DNA of 62,546 bases, counting the filler, from Stramenopiles sp. TOSAG23-6 (taxonomy: Eukaryota): assembly GCA_900128565.1 (NCBI GenBank). It is 6 parts of 6 records of this genome, joined end to end, with 100 filler letters (N's around TTAATTAATTAA, not from the genome) between each part and the next. Parts side by side here need not be neighbours in the genome. Positions count along the whole stretch, not along the records: positions 12,233 to 24,364 come from LT636216.1; 5 more parts are not named here. One strand, written 5' to 3'. The position numbers and the translations under genes were made by a program. Positions 12,133 through 30,109 of the stretch are shown one piece after another. The notes beneath the pieces are model-generated. The model did no database searches and was not told the origin of the DNA. It saw nothing but the letters and a program-made list of their open reading frames with translations. Position 1 is the first letter of the stretch. Every line of letters starts with the position of its first letter.

Positions 12133-12232
12133 NNNNNNNNNNNNNNNNNNNNNNNNNNNNNNNNNNNNNNNNNNNNTTAATTAATTAANNNNNNNNNNNN
12201 NNNNNNNNNNNNNNNNNNNNNNNNNNNNNNNN
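12133..12232. other. Artificial contig linker (N-TTAATTAATTAA-N)
   Basis: 100-nt spacer with stops in all frames; same design occurs five times. Confidence 0.97.
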
Positions 12233-19021: not shown

Positions 19022-20768
<1,747 letters not shown>

Positions 20769-21981: not shown

Positions 21982-22139
21982 CCAACAAGTATTCAAAAAT
22001 AGTATTGTACAATTGACTACATTTGAATATTATAAAAGAATTAAATAAATAGTTGAAAAAAAAAATATTCTTTATTCTATTAATAATTTACATACAAGCG
22101 AGTGGAAATAATAATTTACATACAAGCGAGTGGAAATAA

Positions 22140-22206
22140 TAATTTGTCAGCAATATTGCACTTCTGGAATTAGATTTTTAAGCAAAATTTGCATCAATCA
22201 AATCAA
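22140..22206 (-). promoter_or_regulatory. Candidate SECIS element
   Basis: Hand-folded: TGAT, ~12-13-bp stem, AAAAA loop with TCT/AGA mini-stem, TGAC, and a lower stem TGATTTG/CAAATTA. Confidence 0.45.
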
Positions 22207-22230
22207 TAATAATTAATCAAACTTGTTCTG

Positions 22231-23381
22231 TTACACTTCAGATCGTTTCTGGTGTTTTATGCACCAGGAAATTGGTTTCAGAAGAATAGCCACGCCAGCA
22301 GATGTTGGTCAAAACCGCAGAATACTCAGTAGTGAACTATTAATGATACCCGTTATAAATGTAGTTTCGTGGGTGCCTTTGAAACATTCTTTGATTGAAA
22401 TTGTGTCGTTCCTTTTAAAACCACAATCATTGATAAATTCCCAAAGTGCGACTAGATAAAATATAAATACAACCTTGTATGGTATTGCAGGAACGGCACC
22501 GCCTCTGAAATTCCACACCAAGCGAGTTGATAAAACTCCAAGAACTGACGTCGGAGAAGCCCCCCAGAGAACAAAGAGAGAAATATCAATAAACAAAAAA
22601 ACACTTAGTATTAGAACAACATACCCTAACTGACTAGATTCCCCTGTGACACCAAATAAGAGTGCTAAACAAAGGATTAGGGTATGGAAGCAGCTCATGG
22701 CACGGAAAACATTAGCATATACATTGATATGAAAGCAATACCACTTATACTGAGACCCTGGAACGATACAGTATTTTCGGAAAATATTTCAAAAATTTCA
22801 AAATTGTTAGGTACAAAATTTTCTATTGAAAAAAAAAAACGGATTGAAAAATTCATCAAAAAAGCGTACAAGTATTTTGGCTTCTCTTTGTGTAAAATCC
22901 TATTATTCATAGACCAAGGCACACGATCCGTTTCATCACTGATTAGTTTTGATAATTCACCAGAACGATGTAAGCGTTGTATTTCTTCCTCTCCACCAAG
23001 GTACATCCCCTTTATATAAACCACAGGAAAGGTCAAAACTGGAAGTCCTAAAATTTTCTTTAGTGCAGCTCGATATGCAGGCGGGGTACCGACAATAAGT
23101 TTGGGGTTCAAATCATATTCTTCACGTAGTAGAGATTTAGCCCGCTCGCAGAATCCACATCCTTCTTTTTCAATAACTACAACGTCATTTCTTTCTATTG
23201 AAATTTGTAAGTCATTTTGAGCTTCGAGTGTATCTGCGGAGTCTACGAATATTGTACACTTATACTCTTCCAAGTACGATACTATATCTGACTTTACATC
23301 AGAAAGAAATCGTGTAAAATTATTCCTATTAGACATATCAGTCACATCATCTGATGACATAATAGATCCATACAATGTCAT
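22231..23381 (-). CDS. Glutaredoxin (CGFC) fused to a multi-pass membrane domain (DUF4395-like); ends at TGA 22309-22311, or at TAA 22231-22233 if the TGA is Sec
   Basis: KEGCGFCERAK and TFPVVYIKGMYLGG. The frame joins the hydrophobic ORF after intron removal. Confidence 0.7.
22769..22869 (-). mobile_element. Introner-like intron, GT...TG (GT...AT if 3 nt longer)
   Basis: TT|GTACGC...GTACCTAAC...GAAAATACTG|TATC. Confidence 0.75.
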
Positions 23382-24364: not shown

Positions 24365-24464
24365 NNNNNNNNNNNNNNNNNNNNNNNNNNNNNNNNNNNN
24401 NNNNNNNNTTAATTAATTAANNNNNNNNNNNNNNNNNNNNNNNNNNNNNNNNNNNNNNNNNNNN
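24365..24464. other. Artificial contig linker
   Basis: N-TTAATTAATTAA-N. Confidence 0.97.
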
Positions 24465-24573
24465 ATGTATTTTGAAAAAATATTTCAAAAAAAATTCTAA
24501 AAAATTTGTTAGGTACAAAATTTACTATAAAAAAAAATTCGATTTTTTTGTTAAAAAAAAAAATAAAACCTAC

Positions 24574-25123
24574 TTTTTGAATCTTGGATAATGACTTCTA
24601 AATCGGACAGACCTGTATAGTGAAACAAATAATGTAAAACATTTAAAATTTTGTGACAACTAAAATTCTTAGGTACAAAATTTCGTATGAAACCAAAAAA
24701 AATAAATAAATTTGAAATTCATGATGAAATCATACACAATTCAAACACTAAATGGAGTCTCTCTTTGTGTGAAAAAATATCTAGTAGTGATATTATATTG
24801 GGGTGTGGTAGTAATTGAAATTCCTTTAGTAATTTGATTTCACGAAGTGTTACTACGCCTACACCTTCAGCTGTATTTTCCATACGCATTTTCTTTACAG
24901 CTACTTGAGTTCCAGAATGTTCATTATCTGTTGCCAAATAAACCGTCCCAAATGTTCCTTTTCCCAGTTCTTTTCCCTTTGTATATCTATGCCATCCTAC
25001 TTTTTGTGTACTTACATTTATATTTGATGTAAGTGTAGAACTCACATGTGTAGATGAAAGTGTACATGCTTTTTTTAAGGTTTTTGAATCAGTCAAGCCA
25101 ACGTTTTTTCGTTTTGTAGACAT
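24574..25123 (-). CDS. Mirror copy of CDK7 exons 1-2
   Basis: Reverse complement of 28070-28619; the ORF translations are identical. Confidence 0.7.
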
Positions 25124-26798
25124 GGTGGTTGAAATTGTACTCTAAAGAGTGTACGTAGTGTTGAACACTGTTCGATGAACGATTTGCCAAGCTAATCTAT
25201 ACCGTATCACAACGCTTGGATATATATTCAATACTTTATTTATATTTGAGCAAGTCAATCACTGAAAAACACTATTGTTATTATTATTATACTCTGTTTT
25301 TTTTTAGTATACGTAGTGTGCGAGGTGTAGTCAATGATAGTGAGAGTACTTGATTCGCACTTGATTCCTTGACTACGACTTTCTAACCCTAACCCTAAAC
25401 ACCAAACACAAGCAACAACACTCCATGGATTTGGTTTTAAAATTGCGGATTTCGTGTATACTTTCGAAAGTTGAAAAACGACAAATAAAAACCATTAGTA
25501 TTATATCTTGAAAAACGTATCTCATTTTTCATTCTTTTCAAATTACAGTTGTTTATTGCTTCATAATAAAACTAATTTGGGATAATTTCTCATTTTTCAT
25601 TCTTTTCAAATTACAGCTAGTTGACCAGCTAGTTGAACCAGGCTTTCAACAAATGATCTTGTAAATCATATATATGATTTTATTCAAAAAATGTACATCA
25701 GGTATGTACCAACTAAATATAGCTACTTATTATATAGAACAAGATGTCGTATCTATATGTATATATGATACGTATTTTGATGATAATAATACTAATAATG
25801 GTTATTCGATTTCTATATTGGATACGATTTCTATAATACCGTATATTTTAAATCAGTACCGGGTGTACGCCTAGGAGGGAATAGATTTTAATATAAATAA
25901 AGACATTTTAAAATCAAAATTGTAAAACATTTTTACTCAAAAAATAATTATTACACTTCATATGTACATTCACCCGTTACCTGGTTCCAATAGAAAGCCA
26001 GTGAATTCGTGTTTGTATTAATCACACTCACCCACAAATTTTGTTTTTTGGATTGTCTTTTTTTTTGTCTAGGGTTAGGGGTAGTAGAATCATTGATTTC
26101 GTGTCGTTCAGAATCATTTATGTTTTTCCTTGTATTGTTTTTATTATTATTCAAAATACGTAAATTCTGCTCTTCATCTATTTCATCTCTTGTGCGTATT
26201 TTAAGTTGAGAAAAATGTGTCATATCATCAAAATGTTCAACAGTACTAGGGTTAGGGTTGGAATTTTTTTCAATATCATCATTATCATTCAATACATCAA
26301 TCATATGATGATTTTCAATATTTTCAACAATTTCAATATTTTCATCATCAGCATCATCATCATAATCATCATAATCATTATAACCATCAGTCATTATTTT
26401 TTTCAGCAAATAATTTAACAATTGTTAAATGAAATTTGAGAAATAAATTACTTCCACATCCTTGACTCAATTCATCATGAATTGTACAAAAATATTTCGA
26501 AAAAATTTTATATTTTTGTTAGGTATGAAATTTCGTATGAAAAAAAAAAAAAAAAAAAAATAAAAAAAAAAAAAAAAATTTAAAAAAAAATAAAAATTTT
26601 TATTTTTTTTTAAATTTTTTTTTTTTTTTTTATTTTTTTTTTTTTTTTTTTTTCATACGAAATTTCATACCTAACAAAAATATAAAATTTTTTCGAAATA
26701 TTTTTGTACAATTCATGATGAATTGAGTCAAGGATGTGGAAGTAATTTATTTCTCAAATTTCATTTAACAATTGTTAAATTATTTGCTGAAAAAAATA

Positions 26799-27242
26799 AT
26801 GACTGATGGTTATAATGATTATGATGATTATGATGATGATGCTGATGATGAAAATATTGAAATTGTTGAAAATATTGAAAATCATCATATGATTGATGTA
26901 TTGAATGATAATGATGATATTGAAAAAAATTCCAACCCTAACCCTAGTACTGTTGAACATTTTGATGATATGACACATTTTTCTCAACTTAAAATACGCA
27001 CAAGAGATGAAATAGATGAAGAGCAGAATTTACGTATTTTGAATAATAATAAAAACAATACAAGGAAAAACATAAATGATTCTGAACGACACGAAATCAA
27101 TGATTCTACTACCCCTAACCCTAGACAAAAAAAAAGACAATCCAAAAAACAAAATTTGTGGGTGAGTGTGATTAATACAAACACGAATTCACTGGCTTTC
27201 TATTGGAACCAGGTAACGGGTGAATGTACATATGAAGTGTAA
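26799..27242 (+). CDS. Acidic low-complexity ORF with a C-terminal WW-like domain (mirrored at 25951-26394)
   Basis: LWVSVINTNTNSLAFYWNQVTGECTYEV*. Confidence 0.55.
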   Translation: MTDGYNDYDDYDDDADDENIEIVENIENHHMIDVLNDNDDIEKNSNPNPSTVEHFDDMTHFSQLKIRTRDEIDEEQNLRILNNNKNNTRKNINDSERHEINDSTTPNPRQKKRQSKKQNLWVSVINTNTNSLAFYWNQVTGECTYEV

Positions 27243-28069
27243 TAATTATTTTTTGAGTAAAAATGTTTTACAATTTTGATTTTAAAATGTCTTTATTTAT
27301 ATTAAAATCTATTCCCTCCTAGGCGTACACCCGGTACTGATTTAAAATATACGGTATTATAGAAATCGTATCCAATATAGAAATCGAATAACCATTATTA
27401 GTATTATTATCATCAAAATACGTATCATATATACATATAGATACGACATCTTGTTCTATATAATAAGTAGCTATATTTAGTTGGTACATACCTGATGTAC
27501 ATTTTTTGAATAAAATCATATATATGATTTACAAGATCATTTGTTGAAAGCCTGGTTCAACTAGCTGGTCAACTAGCTGTAATTTGAAAAGAATGAAAAA
27601 TGAGAAATTATCCCAAATTAGTTTTATTATGAAGCAATAAACAACTGTAATTTGAAAAGAATGAAAAATGAGATACGTTTTTCAAGATATAATACTAATG
27701 GTTTTTATTTGTCGTTTTTCAACTTTCGAAAGTATACACGAAATCCGCAATTTTAAAACCAAATCCATGGAGTGTTGTTGCTTGTGTTTGGTGTTTAGGG
27801 TTAGGGTTAGAAAGTCGTAGTCAAGGAATCAAGTGCGAATCAAGTACTCTCACTATCATTGACTACACCTCGCACACTACGTATACTAAAAAAAAACAGA
27901 GTATAATAATAATAACAATAGTGTTTTTCAGTGATTGACTTGCTCAAATATAAATAAAGTATTGAATATATATCCAAGCGTTGTGATACGGTATAGATTA
28001 GCTTGGCAAATCGTTCATCGAACAGTGTTCAACACTACGTACACTCTTTAGAGTACAATTTCAACCACC

Positions 28070-30109
28070 ATGTCTACAAAACGAAAAAACGTTGGCTTGA
28101 CTGATTCAAAAACCTTAAAAAAAGCATGTACACTTTCATCTACACATGTGAGTTCTACACTTACATCAAATATAAATGTAAGTACACAAAAAGTAGGATG
28201 GCATAGATATACAAAGGGAAAAGAACTGGGAAAAGGAACATTTGGGACGGTTTATTTGGCAACAGATAATGAACATTCTGGAACTCAAGTAGCTGTAAAG
28301 AAAATGCGTATGGAAAATACAGCTGAAGGTGTAGGCGTAGTAACACTTCGTGAAATCAAATTACTAAAGGAATTTCAATTACTACCACACCCCAATATAA
28401 TATCACTACTAGATATTTTTTCACACAAAGAGAGACTCCATTTAGTGTTTGAATTGTGTATGATTTCATCATGAATTTCAAATTTATTTATTTTTTTTGG
28501 TTTCATACGAAATTTTGTACCTAAGAATTTTAGTTGTCACAAAATTTTAAATGTTTTACATTATTTGTTTCACTATACAGGTCTGTCCGATTTAGAAGTC
28601 ATTATCCAAGATTCAAAAAGTAGGTTTTATTTTTTTTTTTAACAAAAAAATCGAATTTTTTTTTATAGTAAATTTTGTACCTAACAAATTTTTTAGAATT
28701 TTTTTTGAAATATTTTTTCAAAATACATCACCACTTTCACCAAGTGATACAAAAACATATATGCTTCATATTCTACGGTCAGTCTCACATTGTCATAATA
28801 ATTGGATTATGCATGTATGTTTTTTTTTTTTTTTTTTTAAATTTTTTTTTGTATGAATTTTTTTTTCGTACGAAATTTTGTACCTAACAAATTTTCAAAA
28901 TTTTTTTTTTTGAAATATTTTTCCGAAATACATCGAGATTTAAAACCAAATAATTTTTTTCTTGGTGTTGACCATCAACTAAAGTTGGGTGATTTTGGTG
29001 CAGCCAAGGAATATGTATGTACTCATAATGAACACACACGAAATATTTTGAATAAAGATTATTTTTGTGTGAAATTTGTGAAATTTTTGAAATTTTTGAA
29101 ATTTGAAAAAAAAAAAAAAAAAAAAAAAATTTTGACCAATTTTTAATCTGTACATAAATTTCACAATACATGCATCTCCTGAACGACAATATCATAATGT
29201 AATGGTGACTATATGGTATCGTCCTCCTGAATTACTGTTTGGTTCAAGAAATTATGGTGTTGGTGTTGACATGTGGTCTATTGGTTGCATTTTTGCTGAA
29301 TTATTACTGAAAAAACCTTTTTTAGCAGGTCAAAATGTTTGTTTTTTTTCTCAATTTTTTTTTTTTCGTAGGTAATTTTGTACCTAACAAATTTTCAAAA
29401 TTTTTTTTTTTGAATTTTTGTTCAAAATATTTATATTTATTATGAACCTTTTCAAAGTTTTTTTTNTTTTATTTTTTTTTGGTATGAAATTTTGTACCTA
29501 ACAAAACCCAATATATAGACAAAAAAAAATATTTTTTTACAAAAAATGAATTAGATCAACTAGGAAAAATGTATGTTTTTTTTTTTTTCAAATTCAAAGT
29601 TTTTTTTCGTACGAAATTTTGTACCTAACAAAAAAAAATTTCAAATATTTTTCCAAAATACATATTTCATTATTTAGGAACACCAACTGAAGCCATTTGG
29701 CCCGGTATGACGTCATTACCATCATATATTGGTTTTACACCATGCAAAGCACCACCACTAAAATCATTATTTATTGGAGCATCCAGCGCAGCTGTTGATC
29801 TTATATCTAAATTACTCATGTACGCTTTCATCGTTTTTAATTTTTTTTTTTTTTTTTAAATTTTTTTTTTTTTCAATTTTTTTTTTCAATTTTTTTAATT
29901 TTTTTTTTTTTTTTTTTCATACGAAATTTTGTACCTAACAAAAAAATAAAAAAAAAATTTCAAATATTTTTTTTCAACATAGTTATGATCCTTCGAAGCG
30001 TATTTCTGCTAAAGAGGCGTTACGTCATAAATATTTCACAGAAGGTGTTCAACCAACACAACCAAAAAACTTAGCAGCAGCAGTGAAATTATCATCTAAA
30101 AGGAAATAA
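28070..30109 (+). CDS. CDK7: Cyclin-dependent kinase 7 (CAK/CDKD)-like; exons 28070-28457, 28581-28619, 28729-28814, 28934-29014, 29172-29336, 29548-29570, 29664-29819, 29983-30109
   Basis: Spliced product [85 protein letters not shown]. Confidence 0.9.
28458..28580 (+). mobile_element. Introner-like intron, GT...AG
   Basis: Family core; joins FEL-C-LSDL. Confidence 0.9.
28620..28728 (+). mobile_element. Introner-like intron, GT...AT
   Basis: AA|GTAGGT...AAAATACAT|CA joins DSK-T-PLSPSD. Confidence 0.88.
28815..28933 (+). mobile_element. Introner-like intron, GT...AT, inside the catalytic HRD motif
   Basis: CAT|GTATGT...AAATACAT|CGAGAT gives H-RDLKP. Confidence 0.92.
29015..29171 (+). mobile_element. 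Intron GT...AT with a degenerate family core
   Basis: TAT|GTATGT...CACAATACAT|GCA gives KEY-ASPER. Confidence 0.85.
29337..29547 (+). mobile_element. Introner-like intron, GT...AT, with two core copies
   Basis: Joins AGQN-ELDQL. Confidence 0.85.
29571..29663 (+). mobile_element. Introner-like intron, GT...AT
   Basis: Joins [10 protein letters not shown]. Confidence 0.9.
29820..29982 (+). mobile_element. Introner-like intron, GT...AG
   Basis: Joins KLL-I-YDPSKR. Confidence 0.85.

Follow-up and report, generated by a model that had tools for sequence, protein, structure and literature searches.

The in-frame UGA codon at positions 22309-22311 on the minus strand of the DNA analysed here, a window of 62.5 kb of joined contigs from Stramenopiles sp. 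TOSAG23-6, is very probably read as selenocysteine (Sec) by means of a SECIS element in the 3' UTR, a prediction from sequence comparison that is strongly supported. The sequence-only reading of the same region had proposed that this TGA encodes Sec, and the proposal is supported by the presence of TGA in all of 38 related loci, by conservation beyond the codon, by the tRNA-Sec and the elongation factor eEFSec of the same genome, and by a SECIS-like hairpin downstream. The predicted gene, also located on the minus strand, is composed of two exons and encodes a protein of approximately 348 residues, in which a glutaredoxin domain with a CGFC site is followed by a four-helix membrane domain (Table 1), and it probably belongs to a real, undescribed selenoprotein family of marine protists. 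Elsewhere in the window, the contig joins can be recognised by N runs flanking a short spacer made up of A and T only (12133-12232, 24365-24464 and others), and the region at about 24500-28700 contains a mirror-image duplication, with identical ORFs at 25951-26421 (-) and 26772-27242 (+) and part of a kinase gene on both arms, which is probably an artefact of assembly or amplification.

Table 1. Predicted features of the glutaredoxin-membrane selenoprotein gene, in window coordinates
Feature	Position	Strand	Description
Exon 1	22870..23381	-	170 codons plus 2 nt, encoding the N-terminal region, the glutaredoxin domain and the linker; ORF 22695..23381, donor GTACGC at 22869
Glutaredoxin domain	23004..23183	-	Pfam PF00462, E 2.7e-8; dithiol CGFC at 23148-23159, residues 75-78
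Intron (predicted)	22766..22869	-	GT..AT, 104 nt, preferred end; motif of the repeated intron family at 22821
Exon 2	22231..22765	-	From translation: four predicted membrane helices and an interfacial helix before the Sec codon, and a C-terminal helix between it and the TAA stop
In-frame TGA, predicted Sec	22309..22311	-	About residue 323 of 348; motif R-F-U-P-T-S
Post-TGA codons	22234..22308	-	25 sense codons, conserved helix (P at +1, S/T/C at +3, K at +11); TAA at 22231-22233
SECIS-like element	22134..22209	-	U-UGAU core 22197-22193, AAAAA 22179-22175, mini-stem, UGAC 22149-22146

The reading frame of exon 1 is opened by an ATG at 23381 (-), and translation of exon 2 confirmed the earlier description of LLSILRF-TGA followed by 25 sense codons and a TAA. 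The glutaredoxin half and the membrane half of the gene lie in different frames, with a predicted intron between them whose 3' end is not AG. Following the frame over the acceptor positions showed that removal of 22869-22766 (GT..AT) yields the 348-residue protein with the TGA as codon 323, and that an alternative intron of 101 nt, 22869-22769 (GT..TG), likewise restores the frame. GT-AG splicing from the donor at 22869 to an AG at 22758, 22750 or 22744 breaks the frame. With a donor at 22814 and the acceptor AG at 22750 the frame is kept, but half of the repeated intron element then remains in the exon, and this pairing was ranked lower. Introns of this repeated family are found on both strands of the window (e.g. 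at 19362, 19193, 22821, 24353 and 59106); they start with GT, are about 100-120 nt long, have 35 matches to their internal motif in the window and end mostly in AT rather than AG. The RNA runs provided only short pieces (depth 2-4), among whose contigs no splice joint was found and none crosses the predicted junction; one RNA contig runs into the intron, as far as 22824, and may represent DNA or unspliced RNA. A polyA RNA contig covering 22292-22547, TGA included, shows no differences from the window. The two domains occur in the same order within a single open frame in many homologous loci, so that the fusion is real at the family level, and it is kept in every tree clade with full-length members. 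The glutaredoxin-membrane fusion that had been read from the sequence is thus borne out by the Pfam Glutaredoxin match and by the domain order of the homologues, with the predicted intron joining the two halves in the window.

The upstream motif alone, written as a degenerate pattern that is blind to the stop codon, was used to scan metagenome contigs and returned 38 related loci with a GC content of 0.30-0.68. Each of them carries TGA at the column in question, with no TAA, TAG, TGG or TGY among the 38, which answers for these loci, in favour of TGA, the earlier question of whether homologues have Cys or TGA at this position with conservation beyond it. For the counts by column, 10 near-duplicates were taken out and the window was added, giving 29 distinct sequences, which are well diverged (the best identity of the window protein is 39%). 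The residue at +1 is Pro in all 29, encoded by all four Pro codons; the one at +3 is Ser in 17, Thr in 7 and Cys in 5; and Lys is present at +11 in 25 of 28, with amino-acid conservation accompanied by synonymous variation persisting for about 15 codons past the TGA. The later, true stops of the 27 sequences that reach one are TAA (14), TAG (8) and TGA (5), and upstream Trp codons are invariably TGG (52/52). Together, the 38 TGA loci, the downstream conservation and the codon counts therefore effectively exclude both an ordinary stop and a genetic code with UGA as Trp or Cys.

Protein databases present the same family cut short at this codon. When 1.84 billion representative proteins were searched, 115 matched with an E of at most 0.001, including one with 98% identity to the query, and 87 of the 115 end in RF, the residue just before the TGA; among 186 fetched proteins, redundant members included, all 156 that carry the preceding NS..L..RF-type motif end there, and no Cys form at the Sec column was seen among these 156. 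A search with the membrane domain among longer proteins gave no match. Several individual loci may be mentioned here: the genomic copy L030 is interrupted by an intron two codons downstream of the Sec codon, and the matching intron-free contig L046 restores the conserved tail; a clade of five loci (L011, L016, L018, L026 and L041), which includes the Prymnesium-labelled sequence, has UxxC in place of UxxS/T together with a CPFC glutaredoxin site, and could form an internal Se-S bond; and L039 (P0010) keeps only the second Cys of the glutaredoxin site, with the Sec codon and a canonical SECIS retained.

The hairpin downstream of the stop has the quartet, the stem, the AAAAA loop and the mini-stem that had been described for it, with a 5' stem strand of 13 nt, and its distance from the stop, given earlier as about 25 nt, is in fact 33 nt as measured to the core. 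By our own ad hoc scanner it scores 9.5, a value reached by 0/20 and 0/10 shuffles, and it is the third of three places with a score of at least 9 across the whole window, the two others scoring higher. When the scanner was applied at a threshold score of at least 8 to the 23 distinct family UTRs of at least 150 nt, the window included, SECIS-like elements were detected in 8, compared with 17 of 230 shuffles; the other 15 lack an AA-type SECIS at this threshold, several of them having strong hairpins without AA. By free-energy folding, the window hairpin does not exceed shuffles in stability (z +1.34 and -0.02 to +0.91). Rfam reported no SECIS for the window, nor for a set of 20 loci among which were three control selenoprotein genes, and it is evidently insensitive here, since the controls were missed as well. 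With a leave-one-out model, built without the window element, the window hairpin is the top match in the 62.5 kb, at E 0.3. The match of model R1 to the same element arises by construction, R1 including that element, and lends no support; in 30 loci, R1 identified no further element at a significant level. The pairs counted in alignment A7 were likewise set aside as evidence, the elements having been picked as hairpins, which makes the counts circular, and a slide of -1 scoring nearly as well. The putative SECIS of the window is thus supported by its position, its type and the enrichment within the family rather than by its own score, by which alone it would be weak. A perfect 28-nt tandem duplication (22081-22136) follows directly after it.

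The sequence-only reading had cautioned that T precedes the quartet. According to PMC2375036, the base at this position is usually A, and G in Ostreococcus, whereas it is U in the element of the window. Inspection by eye of the SECIS-like elements of the GPx and SelW-like genes of the same genome revealed U at this position too, and the caution is answered by this shared feature. The elements concerned are located at L006:1250-1327 (-) for GPx and L008:1793-1868 (+) for the SelW-like gene, with U before the UGA quartet strand; that of the SelT-like gene (L007:905-974) has A before the quartet. No publication on UUGA-type SECIS elements was found in the literature as far as it was covered, and search patterns that allow only A or G would undercount selenoproteins with U-UGA cores in this lineage.

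With regard to the Sec machinery, of which the sequence-only reading had named tRNA-Sec, SecS and eEFSec among the parts to be looked for, tRNA-Sec (64.3 bits, against a cut-off of 47) and eEFSec are present in the organism's own genome, and SecS was not found in the fragmented, intron-rich assembly of 21 Mb in 6236 contigs; nor was selenophosphate synthetase (SPS) found in the same assembly. The genes for GPx, a SelT-like and a SelW-like protein of this genome have TGA at the catalytic position, and searches of it for Sep15/SelM, the C-terminus of TrxR and SelU-like genes brought up no further selenoprotein. A tRNA of standard length with the anticodon UCA lies at L004:426-496 (-), next to a tRNA-Asn, on a small contig that is richer in GC; it looks like a tRNA-Trp(UCA) of organellar or foreign origin and not like tRNA-Sec.

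The N-terminal domain belongs to the glutaredoxins by its match to the PF00462 profile, its CxxC site and its thioredoxin fold. The AlphaFold2 model of the homologue L010 (97 rows; pLDDT 89.6, pTM 0.81) has an N-terminal domain that matches human Grx2 at E 1.3e-5. The dithiol is not universal, as 14 of 53 long homologues show no match to C[PGV][FY]C, some of these being truncated proteins and one having a single Cys. In the model of the membrane domain of the window (pLDDT 90.3, Sec modelled as Cys), four long helices and an interfacial helix are followed by a last helix (148-170) with Sec at its start. The Sec is approximately 245 residues away from the glutaredoxin site, directly after the fourth membrane helix, and forms part of a UxxS/T/C motif. 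Searches with the membrane domain yielded no Pfam family in 27 members, an NCBIfam match confined to the glutaredoxin part, and no specific match in PDB sequence, Foldseek or VIA-align searches; the best Z of the fold search, 10.0, was to generic four-helix bundles, and VKOR and DsbB are absent from the matches listed.

By the positive-inside rule, positively charged loops are cytosolic. In 27 sequences, Lys and Arg average 1.8 per sequence before helix 1, 3.0 between helices 2 and 3 and 2.0 around the Sec, and the two other loops, which are acidic, have 0.4 and 1.4. From this charge distribution we infer that the Sec and the glutaredoxin share the same, cytosolic face of the membrane. In 14 of the 27, at least two Cys are found in the loop that connects helices 3 and 4, and glycosylation sequons do not discriminate between the faces, being present in that loop in 12/27 and in the cytosolic loop in 11/27.

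A bacterial counterpart is suggested by ESM Atlas, where bacterial DUF4395 clusters came first for two homologues of different clades, with feature scores of 0.87 and 0.89 that are below the 0.9 mark and a TM of 0.72 by query that is under the bar for naming a family. The DUF4395 Pfam profile (PF14340) matches 0/27 members at E up to 1 and detects no DUF4395 in the organism's own genome, and profile-profile comparison with bacterial DUF4395 gave a non-significant probability of 0.4%, with one local profile match placing the Sec on the first Cys of the DUF4395 FCLGC. As the top look-alike comes without a significant profile match, the membrane domain is probably a remote relative of DUF4395 rather than an established member, so that the DUF4395-like label given to it earlier holds for features and predicted structure and fails for the sequence-profile family. 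DUF4395 proteins are bacterial four-helix membrane proteins ending in F-x-F-C-x-G-C, and the F-R-F-U-P-x-S/T/C of the present family aligns to their F-G-F-C-L-G-C; the first motif position is Cys in DUF4395 and Sec here, the second is part of an invariant C..C in DUF4395 (alignment A5) and is S (17), T (7) or C (5) in the 29 sequences of this family, and the loops are longer in this family. Both have a thioredoxin-fold partner, which is a fused glutaredoxin in the one and the product of an adjacent thioredoxin gene in the other. Among the bacterial loci (within L050-L125), a same-strand thioredoxin gene was found in the flank of 26/31 DUF4395 loci and 0/49 other loci, and a rhodanese gene in 7/31 and 0/49, respectively, the neighbour profiles having been built from the same loci, which come mostly from related actinobacteria, and therefore not being independent. 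These neighbours hint at a role of DUF4395 in thiol or sulfur chemistry.

In the model that we favour by a modest degree, electrons would pass from the glutaredoxin to the Sec, as suggested by the predicted topology, the fusion, the bacterial gene neighbours and the UxxS/T/C motif, a motif of redox type. The cytosolic dithiol glutaredoxin fused to the four-helix membrane domain would then constitute a glutathione-fed membrane reductase, in which the disulfide of the CGFC site would be reduced by glutathione and the oxidised Sec, in turn, by the glutaredoxin of its own chain. The selenolate so formed would act as the reductant of a substrate located at the surface of the membrane, for which the most plausible candidates are lipid-soluble oxidants, for example hydroperoxides or quinones, or a persulfide. 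An alternative that accepts the selenoprotein and departs from the relay is that the membrane domain is a sulfur- or selenium-transfer, transport or redox-sensing unit, in which the Sec would be the carrier of a persulfide or have a gating function, and the glutaredoxin would act on other substrates or regulate the unit. This alternative would accommodate the rhodanese genes next to bacterial DUF4395, the homologues without the dithiol motif, a window motif that lacks a resolving Cys (as do most members, Cys standing at +3 in only 5 of 29) and a fold for which no solved structure indicates a reductase; it is harder to reconcile with the retention of the glutaredoxin in every clade with full-length members and with a predicted topology that places both sites on one face, and we consider it unlikely, if still a serious competitor of the relay.

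The remaining alternatives dispense with selenium altogether. Programmed readthrough of a leaky UGA-C by a near-cognate tRNA (Trp, Cys or Arg) would add the conserved C-terminal helix to a fraction of the molecules. UGA-C is a leaky stop context, and C does follow every TGA, for the reason that the next residue is Pro; many homologous UTRs are, in addition, without a SECIS by our scanner. Nevertheless, readthrough is highly improbable, as the SECIS-like hairpins of the family are above chance and of the same unusual type as those of the GPx and SelW genes of the genome, the codon is set in a UxxS/T/C motif and corresponds in the alignment to the first Cys of FCxGC in DUF4395, and no TAG or TAA variant exists in the 38 loci. 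Reassignment of UGA as a sense codon for Trp or Cys in these organisms could invoke the UCA-anticodon tRNA on contig L004, but that contig looks GC-rich, which the window is not, and may be of foreign or organellar origin, and the exclusive use of TGG for Trp upstream, the lack of TGG or TGY at the column and the five family genes with TGA as their true stop make such a code exceedingly improbable. No more credence can be given to the view that the protein truly ends at RF with the TGA as an ordinary stop: all database proteins examined do end there, yet such a stop would be expected to alternate between TAA, TAG and TGA in the way seen for the later stops, and would not be followed by conservation with synonymous variation over some 15 further codons. 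The reading as Sec, by comparison, explains why every examined database copy ends at the catalytic residue.

Concerning its range, one family cluster is labelled Prymnesium polylepis, which by this database label would be a culturable carrier, and one EukProt entry of the family has the prefix Hpha, which we take to denote a diplonemid. No match to the family was found in phage records or viral contigs. None of the 30 family clusters looked up lists a UniRef source, and the members that have a name are called glutaredoxin. In the portion of the literature covered, no publication naming this family was found, and by title none of the DUF4395 publications retrieved concerns selenoproteins; the passages seen of PMC9404770 contain nothing further on the family, and the main-text passages of the algal selenoprotein survey PMC7539508, whose other families include UGSC, Hypo, Delta1, GILT and PUB, name no such family. 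Judged by these sources, the family is likely to be uncatalogued among published selenoprotein families, and it is rather improbable that a member is catalogued in the supplement of the algal survey or in the Aureococcus paper. The complete picture, of an uncatalogued, Sec-only eukaryotic family spread over several protist supergroups, with a membrane fold that has no solved relative, representing a selenium version of the bacterial DUF4395 and thioredoxin module, acting as a self-contained glutathione-to-membrane reductase and found in a host lineage for which a SECIS quartet preceded by U is a regular variant, is offered tentatively, with the balance leaning slightly against all of its parts holding at once.

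New selenoprotein families of eukaryotes are rare, and most have their Sec in a thioredoxin fold. Here, the Sec is placed in a membrane domain of no known function, with no Cys form among the sequences seen, and searches that rely on Sec/Cys pairs would therefore miss the family. The finding also gives an indication of which residue of DUF4395 is active and what its thioredoxin-fold partner is, and would add a selenium-dependent membrane redox step to the biology of marine plankton.

Like the GPx, SelT-like and SelW-like genes of the same genome, the present gene has an in-frame UGA at a redox-type motif and a 3' UTR hairpin with a UGAN/NGAN quartet, a stem and an AA loop; it differs from the usual eukaryotic SECIS-dependent genes in that its Sec is located in a membrane domain without a Pfam, NCBIfam or PDB match. 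In the VKOR-thioredoxin fusions of bacteria and plants and in DsbB/DsbA, a thioredoxin-fold domain relays electrons to a four-helix membrane redox centre. The working of the present protein may be analogous to these systems, in having its redox centre at a helix start within a membrane domain of four helices, and would differ from VKOR and DsbB in that the redox site is predicted to be cytosolic and to consist of a single Sec and not a CxxC, with no loop Cys pair on that side. The membrane selenoprotein MSP, as described in PMC2375036, resembles this family in being a membrane selenoprotein of unicellular eukaryotes that nearly always contains Sec, but it is about 180-230 residues long, has a G-S-U-C-W-P motif near its N-terminus and lacks a glutaredoxin, whereas the present family has one Sec near the C-terminus; identity with MSP was rejected on this difference of motif, as judged by eye against the alignment in supplement 2 of that paper. 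The hypothetical selenoproteins 1-3 of Ostreococcus, which have a C-terminal CUG (1 and 2) or G-L-U-N (3), likewise differ in motif from the present family, as judged by eye from their sequences in supplement 2 of PMC2375036. A further likeness is to the algal Sec-containing GRX proteins, as presented in the main-text passages of PMC7539508, which share with this family a glutaredoxin domain plus Sec and a range across SAR and haptophytes. In contrast to them, the glutaredoxin site is here all-Cys (CGFC, CGYC or CPFC) and the Sec lies in the distant membrane domain, and it may be that an outlier filed under GRX in that survey is a member of the family described here.
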